A DNA stretch of 64,000 nt from positions 135,739-199,738 of the forward strand of contig CACKNK010000002.1 of the NCBI GenBank assembly GCA_902601475.1. Reading direction: 5' to 3'. The position numbers were made by a program, and so were the translations under genes. The notes beneath the pieces are model-generated. The model made no database searches, was not told where the DNA came from, and saw only the letters and a program-made list of their open reading frames with translations. The DNA is from an uncultured SAR86 cluster bacterium. GTDB lineage: Bacteria > Pseudomonadota > Gammaproteobacteria > Magnimaribacterales > D2472. This document shows, piece by piece, positions 5,674 through 44,884 of this stretch. Each line of letters opens with the position of its first letter. The stretch's first letter is position 1.

Positions 5674-6882
5674 TTAATTAATCGATGGTTTTAAGGTTGG
5701 CAATGCAATAAAGTTTAAGGCTACATAAATAAATAAGCCTAGGGCCAGCTGGTAGGTAAGAGGGTCGCTTAACGCATAGACACCAAGTACTACTAGCGCT
5801 ATCAATCGGAGTGATTCAGATTTGTATGCCTTTTTACCATCCAACCAAGCGGCAGTGCAATACATTGTGAATGCCATCATCCCAATGATTATGCATAATT
5901 CGGAGTATTCGAATATACCTGACTCAAGAACTATAAGCCCAACAAAACTCAGCACGACAAATTGAGCAAAAGCATAGAACTTAATTTTTTTCGATGATTG
6001 CGGATCATATTTTTTAAATAAATTTGGATCAAAATCGTCTTTGAATGAATCATTCTCCAATGAGCTTGGGCGCCAGCCGGTTCGGGCAAAGGGAACATAG
6101 AGCTTGTCTTTTAATGATTTTGAGCCCCAAATATCTTTAAGCATCTGAACATAAATATGTAAATTAGCCCAAACTGGGTTAAAGGTTTTAATAGGCCCCC
6201 TTATTCCATATATACACGGAATTTTTGTGTCTTCTTCTTTAAAGGTTCCGAACATTCTGTCCCAAATGATAAAAACACCGCCATAGTTTTTATCTATATA
6301 TTCGTCATTTTGGGCGTGATGAACGCGATGGTTTGAGGGCGTTACAAAAATCCATTCATAGAATCCAAGTTTTGGAATGTGTTCACTATGAACCCAAAAT
6401 TGATAAATTAGATTTAATGAGGCAACACTGACAAATACATAGGAGGGCACACCTATCAAGAAAACTGGTATGTAAAAAACCCACGTCAGTAAAGCGCCTG
6501 TTCCGGTTTGCCTCAGAGCAGTGCTCAGGTTGTAATCTTCGCTTTGATGATGAGCTACATGTGAAGCCCAAAAAATTTGGCGCTCATGGCTTATACGGTG
6601 AAACCAGTAATAAAAAAAATCATAGAACACAAAAGCAAAAACCCAAGTAAAGACTGAGCTTGCATCCATCCGCCAAAGCGTAAGGTTTGTTTCAATCAAG
6701 TAAAATACATAACCACCCAGACCAATAAAAACCAGTTTATTGGCTGTTCGAAGGGACCCCATGAATAAGCTTGAGATCGCATCATTTAGCCTGTAGGTAT
6801 TATTCTTTTTTAAAAAACCATAGGTAAGTTCTACCAAAATGGCTAATAAAAAAAACGGAACTGCATATGGCACATAATCCAT
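5674..6882 (-). CDS. Fatty acid hydroxylase / sterol desaturase superfamily membrane protein
   Basis: Histidine boxes HRISHERQIFWASHVAHHQSEDYN and HRVHHAQN. Multiple TM helices, plus a C-terminal hydrophobic extension. Confidence 0.8.
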   Translation of the reverse strand: MDYVPYAVPFFLLAILVELTYGFLKKNNTYRLNDAISSLFMGSLRTANKLVFIGLGGYVFYLIETNLTLWRMDASSVFTWVFAFVFYDFFYYWFHRISHERQIFWASHVAHHQSEDYNLSTALRQTGTGALLTWVFYIPVFLIGVPSYVFVSVASLNLIYQFWVHSEHIPKLGFYEWIFVTPSNHRVHHAQNDEYIDKNYGGVFIIWDRMFGTFKEEDTKIPCIYGIRGPIKTFNPVWANLHIYVQMLKDIWGSKSLKDKLYVPFARTGWRPSSLENDSFKDDFDPNLFKKYDPQSSKKIKFYAFAQFVVLSFVGLIVLESGIFEYSELCIIIGMMAFTMYCTAAWLDGKKAYKSESLRLIALVVLGVYALSDPLTYQLALGLFIYVALNFIALPTLKPSIN

Positions 6883-14512: not shown

Positions 14513-16684
14513 ATGGACGTTTCATATATTTTAGAAAGCCTCAATGAAAAGCAGCGTGAGGCTGTTACATCTGAATCACCTCATCTGCTTGTTCTGGCTG
14601 GCGCTGGATCTGGAAAAACAAGAGTACTGGTGCATCGTGTAGCTTGGATTGTAGATGGATTCAGATCGAATCCTGGAACCATTATGACGGTTACCTTTAC
14701 CAATAAGGCTGCGAATGAAATGCAGAGCAGAATTCAGGAGCTGCTTAAATCACCTGTTCCAGAATTATGGTGCGGAACTTTCCATGGATTGGCACACAGA
14801 ACACTAAAAAGATTTTATAAAGAGGCAAATCTTATTTCAGGCTTCACGATTCTTGATGCAGACGACCAGCTCAGGATCATTAAAAGATTAGCCAAAGAGC
14901 TCGAGCTTGAAGATAGTGCATGGCCACCCAAGCAAATTCAATGGCAAATCAACTCATGGAAAGATGATGGAAAAAGATCAAAGGACATTAAGGCTGAAAA
15001 AGATTTCTATACCGAAACCATAAAAGGTCTTTATGAAAAATATGAAGATTTATGTAAGCAAGATAGCTTGGTTGATTTTGCTGAACTTTTGCTGAAAAGT
15101 TACGAGCTTATCCGTGATGATGGAAAGGTAAAGAAATTTTTTCATTCTCGATTTAAGCATATTCTTATCGATGAGTTTCAAGATACAAATAAGATTCAAT
15201 ATAAATGGCTACAAGAGATTGCTTCAAATGAAGCCAATCTGACCGCAGTGGGTGATGATGATCAATCAATCTACGGTTGGCGAGGAGCAAGGGTTGAAAA
15301 CATTGATGCTTATAAAAAATCTCATGATCAAAGTGAAACCATCAGGCTAGAACAGAACTATAGATCAACCAGTGTCATTCTTAATGCTGCGAATGCTCTA
15401 ATAGAAAATAACCAAGAAAGACTTGGCAAGAATTTATGGACTGACTCTAAAGAAGGTGAGTTGATCACGCTTTATCAAGCCTATAGTGAGCAAGATGAGG
15501 CTAGATTTATTGCTGAAGTTATCAAGGGCTGGATGAACAGTGGTGAGCTCTATAAAGATTGTGCGGTTGTGTATAGATCTAATGCTCAGTCTAGAGCAAT
15601 AGAAGAAGCATTATTGAGAATCAGTATTCCATATAGAATTTATGGCGGCTTACGATTTTATGAACGGTTAGAAATTAAAAATGCCATGAGTTTTTTAAAG
15701 GTGATTTTCAATCCACATGACAACCCATCATTTGAGCGCTCAATTGCAAATCCACCCAGAGGCATTGGAGCAAAGACGTTGATCAAAATTAGAAATAAAG
15801 CCAACGAGAATAATCTATCTTACGTTCAAGCTTCTGCAAAAATGCTTGATGAAGGTTTAATCGGCGGCAGAGGTGCTGCTGGCTTAAGATCTTATTTAAA
15901 GTTATTGATCGATCATGGCGAACAACTTGATAAGACTCCGTTATCCGATTTGCTTGATTCAATTATTCAATCATCAGGCTTAATTCAGCATCATGAAAAA
16001 GAACCTGGCGAAAAGGGTAAAACGAGAATAGAGAATTTGGAAGAACTGATCACGGCGGCCAAAAACTTTGAACAGAGTTTTGATAAAGAAAAAACAATTA
16101 AAGAAATCTCCGAATCATTTTTGGACACCGTATCTTTAGATGCGGGTGAGACTCAGGCTGGAGAATTTGACGATGCGGTCCAGCTGATGACATTGCATTC
16201 AGCCAAAGGTTTAGAGTTTCCTTTGGTATTTATGACTGGACTTGAGGAAACTCTGTTTCCTCATGGCAGATCGATGGAATCTCCTAATCAGTTAGAGGAG
16301 GAGAGGCGACTTTGTTATGTTGGTATCACCAGAGCAATGAAAAAACTTTATCTAACTTATGCAGAATCCAGAAGGCTTCACGGTTCTGATGTATTTAATC
16401 CGCCATCAAGATTTATTAAAGAAATACCCGCAGAATATATTGACGAGATTAGACCCAGAGCTTCAGTTAATGTTCCTTATAAAAGAACTTCACAATCAAG
16501 CCCGATGGATTTTAAAGAAGAGATTGGCATTGCGCTCGGCCAAAAAGTCTTGCATCCAAAATTCGGTCAAGGCATAGTTTTAAATTACGAAGGCTCAGGA
16601 GAGTCAGCAAGAGTGCAAATAAATTTTGAATCTGCTGGCACTAAGTGGCTGGTGCTTTCGTTTGCTAATCTTGAGGTAATTTAA
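14513..16684 (+). CDS. uvrD: DNA helicase II (UvrD, SF1)
   Basis: Walker A AGAGSGKTRVL, DEFQDTN, QNYRS, TLHSAKGLEF, RRLCYVGITRA. Confidence 0.9.
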   Translation: MDVSYILESLNEKQREAVTSESPHLLVLAGAGSGKTRVLVHRVAWIVDGFRSNPGTIMTVTFTNKAANEMQSRIQELLKSPVPELWCGTFHGLAHRTLKRFYKEANLISGFTILDADDQLRIIKRLAKELELEDSAWPPKQIQWQINSWKDDGKRSKDIKAEKDFYTETIKGLYEKYEDLCKQDSLVDFAELLLKSYELIRDDGKVKKFFHSRFKHILIDEFQDTNKIQYKWLQEIASNEANLTAVGDDDQSIYGWRGARVENIDAYKKSHDQSETIRLEQNYRSTSVILNAANALIENNQERLGKNLWTDSKEGELITLYQAYSEQDEARFIAEVIKGWMNSGELYKDCAVVYRSNAQSRAIEEALLRISIPYRIYGGLRFYERLEIKNAMSFLKVIFNPHDNPSFERSIANPPRGIGAKTLIKIRNKANENNLSYVQASAKMLDEGLIGGRGAAGLRSYLKLLIDHGEQLDKTPLSDLLDSIIQSSGLIQHHEKEPGEKGKTRIENLEELITAAKNFEQSFDKEKTIKEISESFLDTVSLDAGETQAGEFDDAVQLMTLHSAKGLEFPLVFMTGLEETLFPHGRSMESPNQLEEERRLCYVGITRAMKKLYLTYAESRRLHGSDVFNPPSRFIKEIPAEYIDEIRPRASVNVPYKRTSQSSPMDFKEEIGIALGQKVLHPKFGQGIVLNYEGSGESARVQINFESAGTKWLVLSFANLEVI

Positions 16685-17766
16685 TGAAAAAGTTTTGCGT
16701 ATCTTTTTTTGTTTTATTTTTAATTTCTTGTTCACAGGATTCTGTTCAGTCAGAAGTAGCTGTAAAGAAATTTAATTGGTCCATGGTAACCACGTGGCCA
16801 AAAAACTATCCTGGATTAGGGATGGCACCTGAGCGTTTTAGCAAAATGGTAAATGAGATGTCTCAAGGTCAACTGAAGATAACTGTTTATGGTGCCGGTG
16901 AATTTGTTCCCGCCATGGGAGTCTTCGATGCAGTTTCTTCGGGCTCAGTGGAAATGGGTCATGGCGGCGCTTATTACTGGAAAGGTAAGGTTCCTGCTGC
17001 ACAGTTCTTTGCAGGGGTTCCATTCGGATTCACAGCTGATGAAATTAATGCATGGGTTTATCGAGGCGGCGGTTTAGAGTTGTGGGAAGAAATTTATCAA
17101 CCCTTTAACATTAAACCCTTACCGGGTGGCAATACCGGCACCCAGATGTTTGGGTGGTTTAATAAGGAAATTAATTCACTTGCAGATCTGAAGGGTTTAA
17201 AAATGAGGTTTCCAGGTTTTGGAGGAGAGGTTTTTAAACGAGCAGGCGGCACACCGGTAAATATTCCTGGCGGCGAGCTGTATACAGCTATGCAAACGGG
17301 AACCATTGATGCAGTTGAGTGGGTGGGTCCATATAATGATCTCGCTTTTGGTTTTCAGCAAGTTGCAAAATATTATTATTATCCTGGTTGGCATGAGCCG
17401 GGGTCCATGCTTGAGTTTATGATCAACATTGATGAGTGGAATGGACTGCCTCCGCATTTACAAAAGATTGTTGAGGTTGCTGCCAAGGCAGTTAATCAAG
17501 ATCTTTTAGATGAATACACGGCTTCAAATAATCGAGCCTTACAGGAACTAATTAATACTCATGATGTTCAGTTAAGAAGATTACCCGATGATGTGATCAA
17601 TGAATTCAGAGCAATATCCGATGATATTTTGACATCCTCAGCAGAGAACGATGCAGATGTTAAAAAAGTTTATGAATCATTCAAAAAATTTATGGGAGAA
17701 GTTAGATCTTTTAATGCAATTGCCGAAGATGCATTTGTTGAAGCACGTAATTTGAGTGAAGAATAA
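16684..17766 (+). CDS. dctP: TRAP transporter substrate-binding protein (DctP family)
   Basis: Lipoprotein-like signal (LISCS). WPKNYPGLGMAPERF and GAYYWKGKVPAAQFF are typical of the COG4663-type TRAP SBP. TAATG overlap with the uvrD stop. Confidence 0.85.
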   Translation: MKKFCVSFFVLFLISCSQDSVQSEVAVKKFNWSMVTTWPKNYPGLGMAPERFSKMVNEMSQGQLKITVYGAGEFVPAMGVFDAVSSGSVEMGHGGAYYWKGKVPAAQFFAGVPFGFTADEINAWVYRGGGLELWEEIYQPFNIKPLPGGNTGTQMFGWFNKEINSLADLKGLKMRFPGFGGEVFKRAGGTPVNIPGGELYTAMQTGTIDAVEWVGPYNDLAFGFQQVAKYYYYPGWHEPGSMLEFMINIDEWNGLPPHLQKIVEVAAKAVNQDLLDEYTASNNRALQELINTHDVQLRRLPDDVINEFRAISDDILTSSAENDADVKKVYESFKKFMGEVRSFNAIAEDAFVEARNLSEE

Positions 17767-20304: not shown

Positions 20305-20646
20305 CTATTTAAGATGGATATTGCTACCTTTAGCTGAAAAATCAGCCGCATCAAATTCTTTTTTTTCTATATCATCGCCATAAATTCCAAACATACTGTC
20401 TTGTCCAGGCAGGTAAACAAAAATATACAAACCTCCTCTATTGTGAGCAAAGAAATGATTTTCTCCCCATGCCAACTCATTGGTTTTATAAAGAAAAATT
20501 ATATTTTTTTCTGGATGGTTAATGGGATAAAGGCTGTGTTCATTTCCTAAATCTCCAGTCTTAACAAGTTTTTCTCCGTTAAGGACATTCAAAAAATAAA
20601 CAATGGTGTTTGGTTTTGCATAGTAAATATTGGTTTTTGATTTCAA
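20305..20646 (-). CDS. Hypothetical protein (113 aa)
   Basis: ORF co-oriented with the operon. Only a TTG start is available and there is no clear SD. No recognised domain. Confidence 0.4.
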   Translation of the reverse strand: MKSKTNIYYAKPNTIVYFLNVLNGEKLVKTGDLGNEHSLYPINHPEKNIIFLYKTNELAWGENHFFAHNRGGLYIFVYLPGQDSMFGIYGDDIEKKEFDAADFSAKGSNIHLK

Positions 20647-20668
20647 ATTTTTTAAATACCAAAAATAA

Positions 20669-20905
20669 TTAATGTGCTAAATTAAAAATCACTACAAATA
20701 AGACTCCTGTAGCAAGGACCCCCAGTACACAGATCAACCAATCCACAAAGAACACTTTAAACAGCTTAGCCCAAACACCATCATGAGCTTCATTCGCTGT
20801 GAGTTCTTTTTTGAAGACCTCCATTGCTGCATCTTTAAAAAATGAAAAGACACACAAGAAAGTTAGGCCTCCCAAAAGAAATATAAATGCATTCGTATTG
20901 ATCAT
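20669..20905 (-). CDS. Small 2-TM membrane protein (78 aa)
   Basis: Two hydrophobic helices (AFIFLLGGLTFLCVFSFF and WLICVLGVLATGVLFVVIF). Strong SD AAGGAGAAAACC-ATG. ATGA overlap with the upstream gene. Confidence 0.55.
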   Translation of the reverse strand: MINTNAFIFLLGGLTFLCVFSFFKDAAMEVFKKELTANEAHDGVWAKLFKVFFVDWLICVLGVLATGVLFVVIFNLAH

Positions 20906-21231
20906 GGTTTTCTCCTTAAATTTATTAAAGCTTTAATTATTCTTGAAAGTTCCGCATCAGCCCTTCGGAAATTTGTTTTAGTTAATGTTCTTGCTTGCCA
21001 GTAATCCTCATAACCATCTTCCATCCATTGTTTTCGAAATAATTGAAAGGTCCTTTGCAGGTACTTCTGCAATAATCGGATATCTGCAATTGCGTTAAAA
21101 TTATTCTTTTTTAGCCACGATTCAACTTCAAAAGAATCACTCTGAGCAACTTTTTTTACAAACATTTCTAGAATAGTAGATAACTCAGTATTGATGTTTT
21201 TTAGATCTTTTATTGATTTTGAATCTTTCAT
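20902..21231 (-). CDS. Hypothetical helical protein (109 aa)
   Basis: ORF 7 nt downstream of the HAD gene and translationally coupled to the 2-TM gene. No recognised domain. Confidence 0.5.
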   Translation of the reverse strand: MKDSKSIKDLKNINTELSTILEMFVKKVAQSDSFEVESWLKKNNFNAIADIRLLQKYLQRTFQLFRKQWMEDGYEDYWQARTLTKTNFRRADAELSRIIKALINLRRKP

Positions 21232-21238
21232 GATTAAT

Positions 21239-21820
21239 TTAAAAATTTGTTCTCTTAATCATAGTATCATCAACATGTTTTGGAATAATCCTTATTTTGG
21301 GGAATACCTTTTTGAGCTGAATAAAGCTTTGAATATTATCCATAGAGTCGTCGAACAGATAAGCTGCTTGGTATTGATGAGATTTTAAATATTTACTGAT
21401 AATTAATTTTTTTGCTTCAGCAGTTTTTAGCTTAGCTAAGTTTCCTGCCCTTTCAACATAGATATGATTGATGTCTAATCCTGAGGAGTTTAGGTATTCA
21501 AGAAAAATATCTTTACAATCAAAATCGGATCTTGCTGTTAATAAAATTGTTTTGGAACCATGGGCAGCTTCTTTTATGCAATCCTGCGCCTTTTTAATAA
21601 TTGGATTGATTGGCTGTGACTCATTTACAAATTTTTTTGAGTCCTTGAACTCTGCAAAACAAATGGTTTCATCATCTTTTAACTTAAAGTCCTTTAATTC
21701 TTGCGAGTTTAAATATATTACTTTACCCTCGCTATTTTTTACTTTTGCTCTTGCGGTAGTTCGGAAAAGGGTGTCATCTATATCAAAAACATAGAGAGAT
21801 TTAATATGCCTTCTAGTCAT
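21239..21820 (-). CDS. HAD-superfamily phosphatase (small, capless type)
   Basis: Motif I VFDIDDTLF (DxDxT). Motif II ILLTARS. Motif III/IV K...YLFDDSMDN. Confidence 0.7.
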   Translation of the reverse strand: MTRRHIKSLYVFDIDDTLFRTTARAKVKNSEGKVIYLNSQELKDFKLKDDETICFAEFKDSKKFVNESQPINPIIKKAQDCIKEAAHGSKTILLTARSDFDCKDIFLEYLNSSGLDINHIYVERAGNLAKLKTAEAKKLIISKYLKSHQYQAAYLFDDSMDNIQSFIQLKKVFPKIRIIPKHVDDTMIKRTNF

Positions 21821-22304
21821 AGCTTTCAGAGCTCCAAATCATGTTAAGTTTATTTTTATCAAGCTCCCAAACTTCAACTTTTATGTTTGATGAAAATTCA
21901 AGCGTCAACCCATCTTCGGATAGATGATCTTTCTTATTCCACTGAATTAACATGGCTTTACAAGTATTTTCTTTGGATAAATGTTTGGCTCTAGATTTAA
22001 GATAAATCTTTAGTTGACTCAAGTACTCAATTTTATTTTCTAATGCTGCTTGTTTTGTCTCAATAATAAGGTCTTCTTTTATGCCAAAGTTTTTTTGTTG
22101 AGGTATATAAAAATCAGCAACAATATACCCAACCGGATGCTTTTTATATAACACATCAAGTGAAAGCTCTTTCTCGTAGGCAACTCTAGAATTTATGAAT
22201 TCAACTGCTAATGCAGCTTGCAAAACATTTTCTTTAAATCCTGCACCTAGCTCTCTTTGAATTCGTTTAGAGAGTTTGGTGACGTGTTTATAAAATTCTT
22301 TCAT
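21813..22304 (-). CDS. GxxExxY-family PD-(D/E)xK nuclease-fold protein
   Basis: ELGAGFKENVLQAALAVEF (GxxExxY-like, Y replaced by L), ADFYIP...LIIETKQ (D...E-x-K), YLSQLKIYL. Strong SD AAGGAGGA upstream. Confidence 0.6.
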   Translation of the reverse strand: MKEFYKHVTKLSKRIQRELGAGFKENVLQAALAVEFINSRVAYEKELSLDVLYKKHPVGYIVADFYIPQQKNFGIKEDLIIETKQAALENKIEYLSQLKIYLKSRAKHLSKENTCKAMLIQWNKKDHLSEDGLTLEFSSNIKVEVWELDKNKLNMIWSSESYD

Positions 22305-22339: not shown

Positions 22340-23752
22340 TTATCCATAAGCATTTACCTCGATTTTATTTTTTATAAATTGCTCAACCCCCTGAATGATT
22401 TTTAGATCTGATGGTGAGGATCTATCTTCTATTAATTCCTCGGCTTCTTTTAAACATGCTGAGCTTGAAGGCCAAGGACCCTCAGATGTCCATCGTTCTC
22501 TAATTAACTCTTGATAATAAGAGGTGAGTTCAGTTGGAAGATCAGATTCATTTTTTTGGGATAAGATTCGGTAGCCAAACTCTTTTGCTCTAGGATCATT
22601 GAATTTTTTGCAAATAAATAACTGCTCTTCCAAGCTCTTTGAATTATGAAATTGTTCAAATAGTTTCTTATCTTCATAGTCGAAGAATTTTTCATAGATT
22701 GTCTCTTCAATAAGGTTTTTCTTTGGCCATTTTCTTTGTTCGGTTTCTGTAGATGCAACAAGAACTTTTTCAATCCAATCTTCATTCCTAGAGTAATTTT
22801 CGGCATTTGAATTCAGCTCTTTCATTGAGCAATCAAAATTGAAGTCAAATTCATTTGCGTCAGCCAAGCCGCTTGATCTATTCAGTCGAATAATTTTGAA
22901 GGGTGATTCAGTAAAAGGTTTTTCTAAAAACTTTGTGATCTCTTCATAACTAAGATTTAAAACTTCATCAACTGGATAGTTAAGGTCCACACATATGGCT
23001 TCATTTTGATTAGTTGGATTGATACCAACGAATTTAATGGGGTATGTCCAAAATCTAGCAAACGGCTGATATCGATAGCCAATTACTTTTGTGTTTTTTA
23101 AAAATTCAGCACAACCTTGTTTTGTTCCCTGGCTCAGAAAGTCTGTTACTAACTTTTCTGCTGATAAATGAAAAAAATTAAGTAACTCGATCATAAAAAT
23201 ACAATCTGATAATGCATCATGTGCATTAGTAGTATCGATGCCGATTCGTTCAGCTACCGAGGATAATGAACATACTGGATGCCCATTTGCATTTATTTCG
23301 AAGTCAATCATCTTTGGGAAGAGCTGACTAACCAATCTGGTTAGCATGAGTAAATCAGATCGGCCATTGCCGTTTGTATTTGTGATGAATGGATCCATTA
23401 AATTCCAAAAGAATTGACGCCTGTATAACTCTTCATCAAAGTTATGACCGTTATAAGTAATAAAAAGGGCAGGGCCATCATTGCTCCAATTTTTCCACTG
23501 ACCATGAATGGTTTTCATCATTTGATAATGTGTTTCTGAGCTAGATAAGGTTTCTATTTTCTTATGAGTTAAATATGCCCCAGGTGAAGGAACCACCCAG
23601 GGTAAGGGAGCACAAGAAACATTCATTGAATCTTGAATGTTGTAATTTTGATCTGTCACCACCGAAGCTGACTGTATTATTTGAATAAAATCTTTTGGAT
23701 CTTTTCCGGTGGTTTCAGTGTCACTAAAGATAAGCTTATTTTGAAATTTCAT
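22340..23752 (-). CDS. sbcB: Exodeoxyribonuclease I-like DEDDh 3'-5' exonuclease (SbcB homologue, divergent)
   Basis: Collinear with my recollection of E. coli ExoI. FSDTETTG (Exo I motif), YNGHNFDEELYRRQFFWNLMDPF (Exo II), GRSDLLMLTRL, NAHDALSDCIFMIEL (Exo III H-x4-D). C-terminal SH3-like/helical region PFKIIRLNRS. 470 aa. Confidence 0.8.
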   Translation of the reverse strand: MKFQNKLIFSDTETTGKDPKDFIQIIQSASVVTDQNYNIQDSMNVSCAPLPWVVPSPGAYLTHKKIETLSSSETHYQMMKTIHGQWKNWSNDGPALFITYNGHNFDEELYRRQFFWNLMDPFITNTNGNGRSDLLMLTRLVSQLFPKMIDFEINANGHPVCSLSSVAERIGIDTTNAHDALSDCIFMIELLNFFHLSAEKLVTDFLSQGTKQGCAEFLKNTKVIGYRYQPFARFWTYPIKFVGINPTNQNEAICVDLNYPVDEVLNLSYEEITKFLEKPFTESPFKIIRLNRSSGLADANEFDFNFDCSMKELNSNAENYSRNEDWIEKVLVASTETEQRKWPKKNLIEETIYEKFFDYEDKKLFEQFHNSKSLEEQLFICKKFNDPRAKEFGYRILSQKNESDLPTELTSYYQELIRERWTSEGPWPSSSACLKEAEELIEDRSSPSDLKIIQGVEQFIKNKIEVNAYG

Positions 23753-24359
23753 TTAATTTTCCTTTTTTATATGAATAGGTTGTTACTTTTTGATCAGCCT
23801 GATCGGTGAAACGCAAGACATCTCCATCCCTTTTGTCTTCGTGCCAATAAGTTAATGAATTTAATCTGCCATCAGGATAGAAGTAAGTTGCTTTGCCATG
23901 TTTTTTTCCAGCTAAGAAGTTGTACTCTCTCCATTTATGGAAATTACTGAGAAAATGAATGAACCTGCCATGCAATAAACCATTGTTAAAATCGGCACTA
24001 ATTTCAATTGATCCATCCTCATGATATGTTTCATAAGTGCCGGTGAACTCAACAACGATGCATTTATTTATAGGTGTTTCATTTGATGGCTCACGAAGAA
24101 TTTCTTTATTATCAATGAGCTTTAAATCCATATATCTACAGAACTTTCCATTTAAATAAAACAAATCCAGCTTGGAATTTTCTCTCAGGACAAATCCAAG
24201 ATTACGATGATCGAATTCTTTATCCCATTCACATTCCAATTCAAATCGAATATCTTCATAATTAGCGTCTTCATCAATCAAATCCTTTTTCTTTTCCAAA
24301 GCTTTTTCACGATCGATGAGCTTTTGTTTGTATTCTTTGAGGTAGATAACTTTTTGCAT
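23736..24359 (-). CDS. MORN-repeat (YwqK-like) protein, first gene of the operon
   Basis: Repeats of the G-x-x-H/K-G...Y...G type: NGLLHGRFIHF, AGKKHGKATYFYPDGRL, EDKRDGDVLRF. Overlaps the ExoI start by 17 nt. Confidence 0.6.
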   Translation of the reverse strand: MQKVIYLKEYKQKLIDREKALEKKKDLIDEDANYEDIRFELECEWDKEFDHRNLGFVLRENSKLDLFYLNGKFCRYMDLKLIDNKEILREPSNETPINKCIVVEFTGTYETYHEDGSIEISADFNNGLLHGRFIHFLSNFHKWREYNFLAGKKHGKATYFYPDGRLNSLTYWHEDKRDGDVLRFTDQADQKVTTYSYKKGKLNEISK

Positions 24360-24383
24360 ATAGATTTATTATGCTTTACCTAT

Positions 24384-24400
24384 ACGACATATAATGTCGT
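24384..24400. promoter_or_regulatory. Operator candidate 1: palindrome ACGACATATAATGTCGT
   Basis: Perfect 7-bp arms around ATA. Lies 24 nt upstream of the MORN-operon start codon (24359, minus strand). Contains a TATAAT hexamer. Confidence 0.6.
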
Positions 24401-24450
24401 CTTTAAAAACATATTCTTAATTTTTGTATTAAAGATAGTAAATTATTGTA

Positions 24451-24467
24451 ACGACATATAATGTCGT
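24451..24467. promoter_or_regulatory. Operator candidate 2: identical palindrome ACGACATATAATGTCGT
   Basis: Identical 17-mer, 67 bp centre-to-centre from copy 1. Ends 13 nt before the WYL-regulator ATG. Followed by TATATGA. Confidence 0.6.
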
Positions 24468-24480
24468 ATATGATCTTGCT

Positions 24481-25482
24481 ATGAATAATGATACATCCTT
24501 ACGTTATTTAGAAATGCTTCAATACTTGCCTGTATATCCTGCTAAAAGATCTTTATCTGAGATTCGATCTCATTTATCGGAGTACGGACATTCGGTGAGC
24601 GATAGAACAATTCAGCGAGACCTTAGAAAGCTTGAAGGATCGTTTGGATTATATTGTGATGATCGGAGTATTCCTCATGGTTGGTGCTGGATGAAGGATG
24701 CAAAAAGGGTAGACATTGCTGCAATGGATCATGCAGAAGCGCTTACCTTGAGTCTTGCTAAAAAATATCTCTCTAGTGTACTGCCTCTTCAGCACTCCTC
24801 TAGAATAACTGGCCTGTTTAAGAGAGCCGAAGCTTTTTTGAATCAAACCCAAAGCTCTGACCTAATAAAATGGAATGATAAAGTAAGAGTAGTGCCTGCT
24901 AGCCATGAATACATAGGCCCAAAAATAAAAGGGGATATTCAACAAGTCATTTATGAAGCAGTCCTTAGAGAAAAAAAATTCAGTGGTAGCTATCAGTCTA
25001 GAGAATCACAAAAACCCAAAAAAGGAATTTATAATCCGTTGGCTATAATTTCACATGGTGTTGTAACGCGAGTCATCTGCACTAGAGAATTAAAAGGAGA
25101 GGCTGATAACTTAATTAGGTATTTACCCCTTCACAGATTTAAATCTGCAAGCCCCTTAGAGGATTCGATCAATATACCAAAAGAATTTGACCTTGATGAA
25201 TATCTTGATAAAGGCGAACTGAATTACTTATACGATAAAGAAATCGATTTGCATTTGGAGTTTTCTCAGAGTGCAGGCTCGCATTTAATTGAGACGCCTT
25301 TTTCTAAAAATCAATCTATAAAAATCATAAAAAATGGATTTATTATTCTTAAAGCAAAGACTCCTTATACAGAAACACTTAAGAGGTGGATTCTTGGTTT
25401 TGGTGACCAAGTAAGAGTATTAGGTCCTTCAAACCTTAAAAAAGAAATTCAAGAAATACATAAAAGATCCATCAAGAAATAG
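24481..25482 (+). CDS. HTH-WYL-WCX transcriptional regulator (BrxR/CapW/PafBC-like)
   Basis: N-terminal wHTH LSEIRSHLSEYGHSVSDRTIQRDLRKLE. Central WYL-type SH3 barrel FSGSY...YNPLAIISHGVVTRVICT...IRYLPLHRFKS. C-terminal WCX LKRWILGFGDQVRVLGPSNLKKEI. Confidence 0.8.
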   Translation: MNNDTSLRYLEMLQYLPVYPAKRSLSEIRSHLSEYGHSVSDRTIQRDLRKLEGSFGLYCDDRSIPHGWCWMKDAKRVDIAAMDHAEALTLSLAKKYLSSVLPLQHSSRITGLFKRAEAFLNQTQSSDLIKWNDKVRVVPASHEYIGPKIKGDIQQVIYEAVLREKKFSGSYQSRESQKPKKGIYNPLAIISHGVVTRVICTRELKGEADNLIRYLPLHRFKSASPLEDSINIPKEFDLDEYLDKGELNYLYDKEIDLHLEFSQSAGSHLIETPFSKNQSIKIIKNGFIILKAKTPYTETLKRWILGFGDQVRVLGPSNLKKEIQEIHKRSIKK

Positions 25483-28940: not shown

Positions 28941-28957
28941 ACGACAATATGTGTCGT
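28941..28957. promoter_or_regulatory. Operator candidate 3: ACGACAATATGTGTCGT
   Basis: Same 6-bp arms ACGACA/TGTCGT with a 5-nt spacer. Ends 23 nt before the ATG at 28981. Followed by GTATATGA, similar to copy 2. Confidence 0.55.
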
Positions 28958-28980
28958 GTATATGAGTTCTAATAGAACAT

Positions 28981-29487
28981 ATGAAAAAAAATACTGATAA
29001 CTGGTTAAATGTACGGGCAAACTCGAGCATATCATTTAATAATATAACCATCCATAATTCAAAGTATGTGAAAGTTAGCTCGATTAAGGTAACAATTTCA
29101 CTTCATTACTCTGATGATGATGGTACTTGCGTTTTTTTAACTAAAAATCCTCAACTTATTCATATGATGATTGATCGATGTGAAATTGAAAGAAACTTGC
29201 CTTATGGGGAGTGGGAAAAAACCGTTAGATCAATTCTTTTTAAAGAAAAAGGAATAAAAAATAGCGACCTTGATCAGTTTGTTAGTTGGAACCTAGCAAA
29301 CCCATCATTCTCACTGGCAAAGTATAGAAAATGCACAAAAAAAGAAATTGATGCTTTCAGATTTCATCGTGCTGATCAAAGAAGCGAAATTTTGTCTGGT
29401 AATGATAAGGTGGTTTATCAGCAATACATTAAAGCATCCTATAACGACCAAGACAGTTCAGTACCTCACAACTTTGTTATGCCATAG
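28981..29487 (+). CDS. Hypothetical protein (168 aa)
   Basis: ATG ORF directly downstream of operator copy 3. No recognised domain. Confidence 0.55.
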   Translation: MKKNTDNWLNVRANSSISFNNITIHNSKYVKVSSIKVTISLHYSDDDGTCVFLTKNPQLIHMMIDRCEIERNLPYGEWEKTVRSILFKEKGIKNSDLDQFVSWNLANPSFSLAKYRKCTKKEIDAFRFHRADQRSEILSGNDKVVYQQYIKASYNDQDSSVPHNFVMP

Positions 29488-29811: not shown

Positions 29812-31140
29812 TTATAAAATTACAAATGGAAAAACTATAACAAATAGCAAAACCAATATTTGGATGATGATAAAAGGAATAACTCCTCTATAAATATCTG
29901 TAGTTTTAATGCTCGCGTCAGCAACCCCTCTCAAGTAAAACAAAGAAAATCCAAAGGGCGGTGTAAGGAAGGATGTCTGTAAGTTGATGGCCATTAATAT
30001 TCCAAGCCAGACAGGATCAAAGCCCATCATTAATAAAGGCGGAGCCACTAGTGGAATAATGACATAACAGATTTCAATGAAATCCAAAATAAAGCCAAAA
30101 AGAAAGATGGCAAAAAGGATAAAGAATAGGGCAGTGTATTTCCCACCTGGCATCATCTCAAAAATTTGATCAACTAAGAGATCACCACCCACTCCTCTAA
30201 AAATTAGTGAAAAAATTGAAGCTCCAATAAGGATGCTAAATATCATGGTGGTAACGGTTGCTGCCTTATAACTGGTTGCTTTAATAAGCTCTAAGTTAGC
30301 ATTGCCATTAATGGCAGCAATAATGAGTGCTCCAAGAGCACCCACTCCAGCAGCTTCAGTAGGCGTTGCTATACCTCCAATAATTGATCCGAGCACAACA
30401 AAAATTAGAGTGGCTGGGGGCAGTAGGGTTTTGAGAATGTTGGCTTCACCTTTAGTTTCTTCAATGACAACAAACTCTTTTTTCCTATTTATTAATATTG
30501 TGTAGATCAAATAGCCAATTACTATCATTAGGCCAGGGACAACCGCTCCAACAAATAAATCACCCACAGAGACCGTTTCCTGAGAGAACACTCCAAGATT
30601 ATTTTGCGCTCTTTGATAGGCATTCGACATCACATCACCGAGCAGTACCAACGCAATTGAGGGCGGAATAATTTGTCCCAATGTTCCTGTTGAAGCAACC
30701 AAGCCGGAGGCAAAGTCCTTGTCATAACCTTGTTTCAACATCGCTGGTAAAGACATTAGTCCCATGGTTACAACGGTAGCACCCACAATTCCAGTGCTGG
30801 CTGCTAAAAGTGCCCCCACAACAATTATTGAAATACTCAATCCCGAATTAGTATTTTTAAAAACGATTGCCATATCTCTTAGCATTTTGGAGGCAATGCC
30901 TGACCTCTCTAAAACCACTCCCATAAACACAAACAAAGGAACAGCCAAAAGCGTTTGATTATTCATGATCCCAAAAAGTCGCATGGGCAAAGTCTTAAAT
31001 AAATTAGCATCAAAGAAACCAAAAACGGTTCCTAGAAGAGCAAATAATATAGAGGTGCCCGCCAAGGTAAATGCAACTGGATACCCGACTAGCAGCGCCA
31101 TGCAAATTAGAGCAATTAAGAGAATGGGGATTATTTCCAT
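29812..31140 (-). CDS. dctM: TRAP transporter large permease (DctM family)
   Basis: About 12 TM helices. N-terminus MEIIPILLIALICMALLVGYPVAFTLAG and the LFVFMG/GIATPTEAAGVGA regions are typical of DctM. Confidence 0.9.
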   Translation of the reverse strand: MEIIPILLIALICMALLVGYPVAFTLAGTSILFALLGTVFGFFDANLFKTLPMRLFGIMNNQTLLAVPLFVFMGVVLERSGIASKMLRDMAIVFKNTNSGLSISIIVVGALLAASTGIVGATVVTMGLMSLPAMLKQGYDKDFASGLVASTGTLGQIIPPSIALVLLGDVMSNAYQRAQNNLGVFSQETVSVGDLFVGAVVPGLMIVIGYLIYTILINRKKEFVVIEETKGEANILKTLLPPATLIFVVLGSIIGGIATPTEAAGVGALGALIIAAINGNANLELIKATSYKAATVTTMIFSILIGASIFSLIFRGVGGDLLVDQIFEMMPGGKYTALFFILFAIFLFGFILDFIEICYVIIPLVAPPLLMMGFDPVWLGILMAINLQTSFLTPPFGFSLFYLRGVADASIKTTDIYRGVIPFIIIQILVLLFVIVFPFVIL

Positions 31141-31583
31141 AATTTATAAAGCTCCTTTAATCCGGCAAATGCTAAAACTATTGGAAATAAGAAAATTAAA
31201 CTTTTTTGAAAATAAACAAACTCCAAACCTCCTGGCTCAGTCGAAATTTCTTTTACCGACCAAGAAGTTGATACAAAATCAATTGAGTAATAAGCAAGCA
31301 CTCCTATGGTTGGAAAAAGAAAAAATATTATTCCTAAGGTATTAACTAATTTTTTGTATTGTGGCTTTGAGTTGCGATACAAAATATCTACTCTGACGTG
31401 TTCATCCTCAAGATAAGCCCATCCAGCACACCCAAGGAAAATTAAAGCATGCAAGTAGAGCGTTAATTCCTGCAAGTCTGTCCTGCCGACCCCAAAAAAA
31501 TACCTGCTCACTACAACAGCAATCATTAGCACTAAAAGTAGCGGAAGAAAAAGAGCAAAAAACTTTCCAATCCTGTTATTCAT
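31131..31583 (-). CDS. dctQ: TRAP transporter small permease (DctQ family)
   Basis: Four TM helices. HVRVDILY motif. Overlaps the dctM start by 10 nt. Confidence 0.75.
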   Translation of the reverse strand: MNNRIGKFFALFLPLLLVLMIAVVVSRYFFGVGRTDLQELTLYLHALIFLGCAGWAYLEDEHVRVDILYRNSKPQYKKLVNTLGIIFFLFPTIGVLAYYSIDFVSTSWSVKEISTEPGGLEFVYFQKSLIFLFPIVLAFAGLKELYKLWK

Positions 31584-42911: not shown

Positions 42912-43692
42912 TTTGTATTTCCTTTGACCTTTTCTCAGCAGCCTTAAATGCAGACTTAAAGATGTTACTAATTTTGTTTTTCTTGAGAGCTTTTAATCCG
43001 CTGTAAGTAGTGCCTTTAGGCGACATAATTTTTTTTATGGACGGCTCAATGCCATTATTTAATTCAATATGTTGGGCGATACTAGATATAAACATAGCTA
43101 AATTTTTTGAGGCAGCATTTTTATTTTTTGAAAACTTTAATAGTTTTTCATCATACTGCTTTAAGGCCTCCATTATGAAAGCTTGTCCGCTACCCACAAC
43201 AGCAGTAAATTCGTGAAGATCCTTTTCTGATGATAGCTCAATTGTAGAGCCCATTTTATTTAGGAGGGGAATTAATTCTTTTGTTTGTTTTTTTTGTTCT
43301 TCTGCCATGAAAATAGCAGTAATGCTTTTACCAAATTCTGCACTGGTAGTTGGCATTATTCTTATAACCTTCTCCGAATTTACGAGTATTTTTAGCTTTT
43401 GAGATGAAATTCCTGCAACTACAGAAACAAGGGTAGTTTTACCCCAATTAATTGTAGACCCTTCAATGGCATCTTTTACATCTTTAGGCTTTACGCATAA
43501 AAAAATAAAGTCAAATTTAGCTGAATTTGCCTTACTTACAGCAAGACTTTTAATTGAGTTTTTTTCATAAAACTTTTTCTTTTTTTGGTTTCTGGTTAGT
43601 ACGGTAATAGAGGTAGGATTTAATCCGCTATCAAGCAAACCCATAATCATGGCTTGCGCAATGTTCCCACAACCTAAGAAACCAATATTCAT
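42901..43692 (-). CDS. proC: Pyrroline-5-carboxylate reductase ProC
   Basis: IGFLGCGNIAQAMI Rossmann motif and the SPKGTTYSGL C-terminal motif. Confidence 0.85.
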   Translation of the reverse strand: MNIGFLGCGNIAQAMIMGLLDSGLNPTSITVLTRNQKKKKFYEKNSIKSLAVSKANSAKFDFIFLCVKPKDVKDAIEGSTINWGKTTLVSVVAGISSQKLKILVNSEKVIRIMPTTSAEFGKSITAIFMAEEQKKQTKELIPLLNKMGSTIELSSEKDLHEFTAVVGSGQAFIMEALKQYDEKLLKFSKNKNAASKNLAMFISSIAQHIELNNGIEPSIKKIMSPKGTTYSGLKALKKNKISNIFKSAFKAAEKRSKEIQNEY

Positions 43693-44360
43693 TCTCTTTT
43701 ACCAAAAATATTTTCGCCCACTCTTATCAGATTAGAGCCATATTTTAATGCAATTGGATAATCATGCGATGTACCAAATGAAAAAGTATCAAAATTGTTA
43801 AAGTCCGAGCTGATGGCTTCGATTGCGTGTTTTATTCTCTCCATCGACTCATTCTTTTCATTTTCAGACTTAGTTAAGCTTGGCATAAACATCAGTCCGC
43901 GAAGCCTCAAATTAGAACAATGCTCCTCAATAAATTTTGCCAAGGGATGAACATCGCCTATTTGCACGCCGGATTTAGAAATTTCATCATCGATATTAAC
44001 TTGAATCAAAACATTCATAGATTTATTCAAATCAAAACAATGTTTGTTTAACCTTTCTGCAATTTTAATTCTTTCAACAGAGTGCACCCAGGTTGCAAAA
44101 GAGGCGATAGTCTTTGTTTTATTGCTTTGAATTGGCCCAATAAAGTGCCATACAGCATTGGCATTGATAGATTTAGCTTTTTCTGCAAGCTCGGCGGCAT
44201 AGTTTTCTCCAAAATTATTTATTCCCTGATTTAATGCAGCCAAAATGTGATCTACAGATTTCTTTTTTGAGACCGCAACAATCATTGGCTCTGATTGAGT
44301 TGCAGATGAAATATTAGCCTTAAGGCTTTCAACATTATTTTTTATTAATTCTTCGAGCAT
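43689..44360 (-). CDS. yggS: PLP homeostasis protein YggS (UPF0001)
   Basis: IVAVSKKKS (PLP Lys), HFIGPIQSNK, SFGTSHDY. Confidence 0.85.
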   Translation of the reverse strand: MLEELIKNNVESLKANISSATQSEPMIVAVSKKKSVDHILAALNQGINNFGENYAAELAEKAKSINANAVWHFIGPIQSNKTKTIASFATWVHSVERIKIAERLNKHCFDLNKSMNVLIQVNIDDEISKSGVQIGDVHPLAKFIEEHCSNLRLRGLMFMPSLTKSENEKNESMERIKHAIEAISSDFNNFDTFSFGTSHDYPIALKYGSNLIRVGENIFGKRE

Positions 44361-44884
44361 CTTTGTCGAATCAATGGCGATCTTCCTGACTTTATGAGAA
44401 TCTCTCTGGCATTGTTTACAGCAGATTTATTCTCATATGGGCCAGACATTAACCTAAAGTAGGCTTTGCCGGGCTCTTTGGAGCTAAAATAATTATCAAT
44501 ATAAGGTTGCAAGCCTAGTTTTAGAATATTAGTTAGCTCTTCCTGTGCATAAATTTTTCTCCCATATGTCTCTATCTGTAATATGTAGTTACATTCCTCA
44601 TTTGATCTATCTAGGTCTTCTGTATAGATCCAGTCTTCTGTAAGGCCAACTGGATAGGAGAATTCAATATTAGAAGTTATATCAAGCCCAACCATTTTTT
44701 TTACATCAGTATTCATGTTATTAATAAGAGCAAATGCACCAATTGCTGAGATAATTACAAGAGTAAGCCCTGTTTTTAAGCTAAAGGGATTTTTATATGT
44801 TTTTTTTGTAATAAATCTTTGATTTACTGATTTATTTTTTTTTAAACTCTTTTTGCTATTTATGCGCTTGGCAAAATCCTTCAT
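44345..44884 (-). CDS. SPOR-domain membrane protein
   Basis: TM LTLVIISAIGAFALI. C-terminal SPOR-like YILQIETYGRKIYAQE...AYFRLMSGPYENKSAVNNA. The ATG at 44884 lies 1 nt after the argS stop and is preferred over 44914. Confidence 0.6.
   Translation of the reverse strand: MKDFAKRINSKKSLKKNKSVNQRFITKKTYKNPFSLKTGLTLVIISAIGAFALINNMNTDVKKMVGLDITSNIEFSYPVGLTEDWIYTEDLDRSNEECNYILQIETYGRKIYAQEELTNILKLGLQPYIDNYFSSKEPGKAYFRLMSGPYENKSAVNNAREILIKSGRSPLIRQRCSKN

Follow-up and report, generated by a model that had tools for sequence, protein, structure and literature searches.

Non-SOS DNA-damage circuits built on WYL-domain activators have been described around DriD, DdaA and PafBC. DriD of Caulobacter crescentus is an activator that senses single-stranded DNA (ssDNA) and consists of winged helix–turn–helix (wHTH), three-helix-bundle, WYL and WCX domains (PDB 8tp8, 9pfq and 9pfv); its binding sequence is ATACGAC-N7-GTCGTAT (PMC10853764), and an AT-rich spacer is a trait common to all DriD boxes. 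DdaA, a WYL activator of the non-SOS DNA-damage response in Acinetobacter and Moraxellaceae, has the motif CGWCA-N5-TGWCG (PMC12392091), and its site at A. baylyi aciT, CGACAATATGTGTCG, is shifted by DdaA in electrophoretic mobility shift assays and is essential in vivo (PMC13010146). PafBC of mycobacteria is a heterodimeric WYL activator that works by sigma adaptation and has the motif tGTCgg-N10-tANNNT, and BrxR and CapW are WYL repressors of bacteriophage exclusion (BREX), cyclic-oligonucleotide-based antiphage signaling (CBASS) and other defense loci. Here we describe a regulator of this kind in a 64,000-nt stretch of chromosomal DNA (the window; contig CACKNK010000002.1, positions 135,739 to 199,738, renumbered from 1) of a SAR86-cluster gammaproteobacterium, a member of a marine lineage that is very abundant, has a streamlined genome and has yet to be cultured. 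Two copies of a 17-bp palindrome-like box lie in the divergent promoter between a 333-residue HTH-WYL-WCX regulator and an operon encoding nucleases. We propose, with a probability of roughly 0.7, that the palindromes are cognate sites of this homodimeric regulator, which would respond to a signal by activating a DNA-end-processing operon and would limit its own synthesis.

The 17-mer ACGACATATAATGTCGT occurs as two exact copies, at 24384–24400 (box 1) and 24451–24467 (box 2), 67 bp apart center to center, both inside the 121 bp that separate the start codon at 24359 (minus strand) from the ATG at 24481 (plus strand). Box 1 (core CGAC-N7-GTCG, 24385–24399) lies 24 nt from the start codon of the minus-strand operon, and box 2 (core 24452–24466) lies 13 nt from the regulator ATG. 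These coordinates and distances are exactly those of the original prediction, an earlier reading of the window that had described two identical 17-bp palindromes. The copies are indeed identical, but the palindrome is imperfect: 7-bp arms, ACGACAT and ATGTCGT, flank an asymmetric ATA, and the reverse complement differs at three positions. A third copy missed in that prediction, ACGACAATATGTGTCGT (box 3, 28941–28957), lies 23 nt 5′ of the ATG of an open reading frame (ORF) at 28981–29487. The arm pattern ACGACA-N5-TGTCGT has three matches in the window against 0.01 expected (0.08 for the 17-mer with up to three mismatches, from shuffles of the window); the motif is not common there, and all three copies stand directly upstream of gene starts. 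A one-mismatch box, CGAGCATCTTTGTCG, at 44354–44368 overlaps the minus-strand start codon of ORF 43689–44360; it is probably a chance match, and we did not retain it.

Judged by its letters, the palindrome is the already published DriD/DdaA box, with the core CGACA-N5-TGTCG, although the repeat had originally been thought to differ from known sequences. The core of box 3 equals the aciT site of A. baylyi letter for letter, and the window contains three perfect cognate sites of the CGAC-N7-GTCG or CGWCA-N5-TGWCG type with an AT-rich center. The logo derived from the regulator family reads (G/A)CGACA-N5-TGTCG(C/T), in which A5 and T11 are conserved as in the DdaA motif. The gammaproteobacterial LexA box, CTGT-N8-ACAG, has arms oriented opposite to those of CGACA-N5-TGTCG, and we rejected it as the identity of the palindromes.

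Comparison of homologous loci (numbered with the prefix L) ties the box to the regulator. In 12 close SAR86 relatives (L001–L003 and L081–L089; 66–96% identity), the box arms are unchanged while the centers drift (CATAAT, TAGAAT, TATATT, TTTAAT, TATAAC and TATAGT), the pattern typical of a site that a protein reads through its arms. Box 3 is likewise kept, with a variable center, 5′ of the same orphan gene in L001, L002, L003, L081 and L084. Across 79 homologous loci that span many proteobacterial orders, a perfect CGAC-N7-GTCG occurs no more than 250 nt upstream of the WYL gene in 43, against ~1.75 expected if boxes were as dense there as elsewhere in these loci. This co-occurrence and the conservation of the arms support the original proposal that the boxes are operator-type sites, presumably bound by the adjacent regulator, in a divergent promoter. 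The centers of boxes 1 and 2 are separated by 67–68 bp in one SAR86 subclade and by 78–79 bp in the other (L082–L084 and L087–L089 examined). The two spacings are one helical turn apart, so the boxes keep their rotational phase relative to each other despite a different intervening sequence.

The regulator gene (24481–25482, plus strand) encodes 333 residues that we assign to the DriD/DdaA type from Pfam matches, an AlphaFold model, Foldseek searches and a family profile. Pfam recognizes a WCX domain (1.5e-11) and, weakly, a WYL domain (1.3e-3). The model (pLDDT 79) comprises a wHTH domain (residues 1–72), helices (84–134), a β-barrel corresponding to WYL (151–229) and WCX (238–332); the domain order is that of DriD, and the boundaries nearly match those of DriD (1–70, 79–133, 134–245 and 246–327). 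In a Foldseek search of the PDB, the top matches are all DriD (best 8tp8; E = 1.7e-15, TM ~0.52), followed by PafBC, and the BrxR and CapW chains fall below every DriD and PafBC match (E = 2e-9 or weaker, TM ~0.3). DriD thus replaces BrxR/CapW, the originally favored comparison, as the closest comparison. Identity to DriD in the structural alignment is ~16%, and a profile of 21 family members matches DriD chains with E values of ~3e-11 to 1e-10. The locus is shared by three SAR86 single-cell genomes, with 88–96% regulator identity, and the relatives also include Desulfuromonadales. A profile search of a 5.8-billion-protein set returned no Acinetobacter-named protein; its matches were unnamed or generically named.

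Residues implicated in DNA reading are fully conserved in this family. R42, T43 and R46 are invariant in the 21 members, and the i, i+4 spacing of R42 and R46 is that of the arginine pairs that read the box guanines, namely R37/R41 in DriD, R46/R50 in PafB and R47/R51 in DdaA (PMC13010146). The arginine pair is necessary, not sufficient, as the same motif also occurs in other HTH_11/YafY regulators. The WYL domain contacts ssDNA through Y168, S172, R178, Y192, K202, R204 and W206 in DriD and through Y173 and Y200 in DdaA. Y171, S176 and R213 of the SAR86 regulator align with DriD Y168, S172 and R204, and the equivalent of R178 is a glycine in the window protein, with K180 and K181 adjacent.

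We located the −10 elements by comparing relatives rather than by a generic promoter scan; in this AT-rich DNA, a generic σ70 scan returned sites no more frequently than in shuffles. Upstream of the MORN gene that opens the nuclease operon, a predicted promoter (P1) has the −10 element CATAAT (24368–24373, minus strand), located 11 nt past box 1, with 8 nt left to the MORN ATG. It is conserved in all 12 relatives and reads TATAAT in most, such that the shared arrangement is box 1, exactly 11 nt, (C/T)ATAAT, 6–9 nt and the MORN ATG. Box 1 thereby occupies −38 to −24 of P1, which has no recognizable −35 and no extended −10 and would yield a leaderless or nearly leaderless mRNA. L005 and L006 have a box, 11 nt and TATCCT upstream of the exonuclease I (ExoI) gene, there with a Shine–Dalgarno leader. 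The −10-like element past box 3, TCTAAT (28968–28973, plus strand), again follows at 11 nt and precedes ATG 28981 by 7 nt, and five relatives repeat this geometry (TCTAAT, TTAAAT, TTTAAT or TCTACT).

Box 2 is set differently with respect to the regulator gene. A promoter scan identified TTGTAA (24446–24451, plus strand), 17 nt and TATGAT (24469–24474, plus strand), which ends 6 nt before ATG 24481; box 2 fills this 17-bp spacer (−29 to −15). The −35-like element is TTGTTA or TTGTAA in subclade 1 and weaker in subclade 2, and the −10 element is TATAAT, TACAAT or TATGAT in relatives, always 6 nt before the ATG, in support of the earlier suggestion of a leaderless regulator mRNA. On the minus strand, TACTAT (24435–24440) lies 11 nt past box 2, and a hexamer with A2 and T6 is found at the same offset in both SAR86 subclades (TACTAT, TATTAT, TATTCT, TATAAT or CATTAT); box 2 probably also serves a second promoter (P2), further upstream and directed at the nuclease operon. 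We also considered, and rejected, a regulator promoter driven from box 1 on the plus strand, for which the offset-11 hexamer is not conserved between the two subclades. The TATAAT at the box center, originally taken for an occluded −10 element, is not the working hexamer: the center varies in relatives, whereas the conserved −10 elements lie outside the boxes, at 24469–24474 (plus strand) and 24373–24368 (minus strand). The center is merely the AT-rich spacer of DriD boxes.

The 11-nt spacing extends well beyond SAR86. For each perfect box in the window and ~90 loci, we tallied −10-like hexamers offset by offset and found TANNNT at exactly offset 11 in 84 of 269 non-redundant box flanks, against a background of ~1.8% per offset (P ~4e-77). 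The offset-11 element points away from the regulator gene 38 times and toward it 17 times. A Shine–Dalgarno sequence is recognizable in 13 of the 44 window ORFs of at least 200 residues. TANNNT ending 5–8 nt before an ATG is somewhat over-represented (17 of 60 ORFs, such as the minus-strand ORF 5674–6882, which has TATAAT 7 nt ahead of its start), and this SAR86 genome may use leaderless mRNAs widely.

The geometry at box 1 is that of DriD-dependent promoters. By cryo-electron microscopy (cryo-EM), the DriD box overlaps the would-be −35 element at a fixed distance from the −10 element, in promoters that have no −35; the constructs carried an optimized −35 at core positions 4–9, which places the core at −38 to −24, and the didA and CCNA_03891 promoters read GTCG, 11 nt and then CAAGGT or CAATCT (PMC13004042). 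Box 1 shares both the 11-nt gap and the −38 to −24 position. In Caulobacter, driD is transcribed from a bidirectional promoter with a box 13 nt ahead of its ATG, through which the divergent operon, but not driD, is activated; an own-upstream box near the start codon, ~17 nt upstream, is found in 68 of 69 alphaproteobacterial DriD homologs. Box 2, 13 nt from the regulator ATG, reproduces this trait. An exact 11-nt spacing, which a roadblock would not need, points to a stereospecific contact with RNA polymerase and hence to activation. Box 1 most likely activates rather than represses the nuclease operon, and repression of that operon, as originally predicted, is unlikely given a site at the activating position of DriD in a −35-less promoter and the enrichment of offset 11.

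These observations suggest the following model. The regulator would be made from a constitutive, leaderless σ70-type promoter (TTGTAA, 17 nt, TATGAT, 6 nt, ATG). A signal, presumed by homology with DriD, DdaA and PafBC to be ssDNA arising from damage or phage, would bind the WYL domain and free the wHTH domains, and the dimer could then bind the boxes. At box 1, a dimer at −38 to −24 of P1, which has a near-consensus −10 and lacks a −35, would recruit RNA polymerase as DriD does and switch on a leaderless mRNA for the MORN protein, an ExoI-like 3′–5′ exonuclease, a PD-(D/E)XK protein and a phosphatase of the HAD fold resembling polynucleotide kinase (PNK). Through the same geometry, box 3 would switch on an orphan protein of 168 residues. 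At box 2, a dimer in the −35/−10 spacer of the regulator's own promoter would cap, or at least not raise, regulator synthesis, and it would probably also drive P2 toward the nuclease operon.

The products of the predicted operon look like a DNA-end-processing kit. Its first gene encodes a MORN-repeat protein of 207 residues (23736–24359, minus strand; Pfam MORN_2 and MORN, both under the curated cut-off) and adjoins the regulator gene in L001–L004, L082, L085 and L088. It overlaps by 17 nt the gene of an SbcB/ExoI-like DEDDh exonuclease of 470 residues (22340–23752, minus strand), which matches Pfam Exonuc_X-T_C (3.8e-17), PADLOC RTasSbcB (7e-55) and NCBIfam exodeoxyribonuclease I (5.8e-41, but at 140 bits against a 260-bit cut-off). 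The next two minus-strand genes encode a PD-(D/E)XK_3/GxxExxY protein (163 residues, 21813–22304; Pfam and NCBIfam) and a HAD-fold protein resembling the phosphatase part of polynucleotide kinase (193 residues, 21239–21820; weak Pfam HAD_SAK_1 and phrog_415 polynucleotide kinase, 7e-7). The Pfam, PADLOC, NCBIfam and PHROG matches together bear out the gene calls, namely a regulator with WCX and weak WYL domains, a MORN-repeat protein, an SbcB/ExoI-like exonuclease, a PD-(D/E)XK (GxxExxY) protein and a HAD protein resembling polynucleotide kinase-phosphatase. Three small co-directional ORFs (109, 78 and 113 residues; 20305–21231, minus strand), which keep the same order in L001–L003, may be the operon tail as putative members; searches of Pfam, NCBIfam and PHROG gave no match to them.

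The gene behind box 3 (28981–29487, plus strand), predicted to be the third box-controlled gene, encodes an orphan protein of 168 residues with no match in Pfam, NCBIfam, PHROG or PADLOC. Its homologs all have at least 56% identity, are unnamed and lack Pfam domains, and the located copies are on SAR86 loci. The conserved N terminus, MKK, supports the assigned start codon. An AlphaFold model of mediocre quality (pLDDT 67) found no significant fold match in the PDB.

The module lies in a low-GC island of ~10 kb (GC 0.31–0.34 against ~0.37) between lipB/lipA and dctQ/dctM. We found no tRNA or integrase marking the island. Megablast of 11 kb of island sequence matched none of the phage genomes searched, no relative of the regulator turned up among IMG/VR viral contigs, and a phage origin is thus unsupported. 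PADLOC matches in the island are limited to the WYL protein, the SbcB-like exonuclease and a marginal HamA-like stretch, with no recognized defense system. Between the regulator and orphan genes, the segment 25507–28793 (ORFs of 426, 104, 142 and 305 residues, without match in Pfam or PADLOC) varies between strains: it is missing in L001, where the orphan gene directly follows the regulator gene, and partly replaced or strongly diverged in L002, L003, L081 and L084. The segment resembles a cargo slot with box-controlled promoters on either side. Genes of a tripartite ATP-independent periplasmic (TRAP) transporter are split around the island, with dctP to the left of lipB/lipA and the island, and dctM/dctQ directly to the right on the opposite strand (16684–17766 and 29812–31583). 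In distant relatives, the box-adjacent gene often encodes an AAA+ ATPase of ~700 residues, and 10 of 65 box-adjacent proteins match Pfam AAA; other neighbors include a DUF2779 nuclease, a DnaQ-like exonuclease (L008) and, in Neptuniibacter, a GTPase of the FtsZ/tubulin family (L068 and L073). The loci with AAA+ and other box neighbors include L014, L024, L040, L041, L048, L051, L057 and L074.

Several points weigh against the regulator being a DriD-like activator of this operon. A single-sequence phmmer search of the regulator against the PDB gave no match at E ≤ 0.01, so the family profile and the fold search were needed, and the profile match to DriD covers the WYL-WCX part alone. The tyrosine of the WYL motif (Y192 in DriD, Y200 in DdaA) is Arg197 in the SAR86 clade, although it is a tyrosine in distant members, and the equivalents of DriD K202 and W206 are not kept. 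Because the ssDNA pocket is thus only partly kept, the ligand could differ from ssDNA. The −10 calls are error-prone in DNA of 33% GC, the promoter starts (24481 and 28981 on the plus strand, 24359–24361 and ~24428 on the minus strand) are predicted, and the −10 call at box 3 does not have the A that is usual at position 2. Repressors, too, classically bind over the −35 position, and DdaA boxes have been reported ~50 bp upstream of transcription start sites, unlike the geometry here. The positions of the sites are read directly from the DNA; binding, the sign of regulation and the ligand are inferred.

The position of the sites would also suit a BrxR/CapW-like repressor, the model of the original prediction, in which a dimer on both boxes blocks both promoters in unstressed cells until a signal releases it and the operon is de-repressed. 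Protein bound to box 2 in the regulator-promoter spacer and to box 1 over the operon −35 position could block polymerase; CapW is a precedent for a WYL repressor that lets go of DNA when ssDNA binds (PMC11662680), and the operon sits in a low-GC island beside a variable cargo slot. We nonetheless consider this model unlikely. The fold match to BrxR/CapW (E ~1e-9, TM 0.3) is far weaker than that to DriD (E ~1e-15, TM 0.5), the regulator has the helical linker module and the length of DriD, and its box is that of the DriD/DdaA activators. P1, with neither a −35 nor an extended −10, should be weak unaided, the exact 11-nt spacing is needless for a repressor and yet very strongly enriched, and PADLOC recognized no defense system. 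Very improbable is that the palindromes are the site of another factor or a structural or dispersed repeat, such as a repetitive extragenic palindromic (REP)-like element or a hairpin. Nothing speaks for this beyond the putative nature of binding, and it would have to accommodate just three copies in 64 kb, each directly 5′ of a gene start, a box that accompanies the regulator family in 43 of 79 unrelated genomes, arms unlike those of the LexA box in orientation, and boxes at which we found no T-run or terminator.

Activation by the regulator is also compatible with a different role, and we regard it as possible, though not the favored reading, that the same activator runs an inducible anti-phage or anti-plasmid nuclease system, triggered by ssDNA or another nucleic-acid cue in infection, rather than chromosomal repair. 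DdaA also controls CRISPR-Cas and restriction-modification loci (PMC12392091), the best PADLOC match of the ExoI-like protein (7e-55) is the SbcB partner of defense-associated reverse transcriptase (DRT) systems while its NCBIfam ExoI match stays under the cut-off, the low-GC island has an adjacent strain-variable slot, and distant relatives have the box beside large AAA+ ATPases and nucleases. PADLOC, however, detected no complete known defense system, relatives of the regulator are absent from the IMG/VR viral contigs scanned, the set of ExoI, PD-(D/E)XK protein and 3′-phosphatase fits end repair equally well, and the Caulobacter regulon also has the nucleases recJ and bapE. More speculatively, and with considerable doubt, the locus might hold a SAR86 relative of DriD/DdaA that has diverged in sensing, a divergence suggested by the replacement of the WYL-motif tyrosine with arginine, and that uses a bidirectional switch of two boxes to run a so far undescribed, inducible module for DNA-end processing or against invaders. 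A single dimer bound to box 2 would then shut the leaderless promoter of the regulator and fire the back-to-back promoter toward the nucleases; the module may comprise the MORN protein, the ExoI paralog, the PD-(D/E)XK protein, the PNK-like phosphatase and the lineage-specific orphan.

Overall, the feature is real, looks functional and is well explained by the published DriD/DdaA system, here in SAR86. Motif, type of regulator and divergent layout had all been published before, and the advance is incremental; new here are the SAR86 host, a different regulon, the two-box layout and the leaderless promoters. The locus extends the non-SOS, WYL-based DNA-damage circuit of DriD, DdaA and PafBC to SAR86 and many other Proteobacteria, and, for an organism that is not cultivable, it provides a concrete regulon of three promoters open to testing in a heterologous host. 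The family-wide rule of a box, exactly 11 nt and a −10 element fits both the geometry seen by cryo-EM for DriD in 2026 and the −26 element of PafBC. This shared rule suggests one common mode of RNA polymerase docking across these WYL activators, and it offers a simple, sequence-only predictor of their regulons.

Among the known systems, BrxR and CapW resemble the SAR86 regulator as wHTH-WYL-WCX dimers with inverted repeats near their own genes and a location in genomic islands, but they are shorter (~280–290 residues), bind a different operator sequence and repress; here, there is an extra helical module (residues 84–134) and, by PADLOC, no known defense system adjacent. PafBC shares the promoter geometry. 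The proximal half-site TGTCG lies at −28 to −24 here, the −10 element follows 11 nt after GTCG as in the PafBC motif, target promoters lack a −35, and an arginine pair reads the guanines. PafBC, however, has two paralogous subunits that read one half-site and does not bind DNA without RNA polymerase, whereas the SAR86 locus has a single WYL gene flanked by unrelated ORFs and full palindromes that imply a homodimer.

DdaA, also from a gammaproteobacterial host, shares the CGWCA-N5-TGWCG motif with A5 and T11, and the box 3 core is the aciT site. Its R47/R51 and Y173 have equivalents in R42/R46 and Y171, and its homologs have been reported in Desulfuromonadales (PMC12392091), which are also among the relatives of the SAR86 regulator. 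It differs in the position of its boxes (~50 bp upstream of start sites, against −31 here) and in Y200, whose equivalent here is an arginine; this comparison uses the published residues and motif of DdaA rather than its full sequence.

The differences from DriD are that sequence similarity is at the profile level only, with the ~16% identity seen in the structural alignment, that the divergent region holds two boxes here rather than one, that the WYL-motif tyrosine is an arginine, that the targets encode MORN, ExoI-like, PD-(D/E)XK and HAD proteins and one orphan, and that all three predicted mRNAs are leaderless here. The likenesses run from the ATACGAC-N7-GTCGTAT box with its AT-rich center, the recognition-helix arginine pair, the domain order and the protein length to a bidirectional promoter with a box 13–14 nt ahead of the regulator's start codon, a box at −38 to −24 and 11 nt from the −10 element in target promoters without a −35, and a regulon that includes nucleases, recJ and bapE in Caulobacter.

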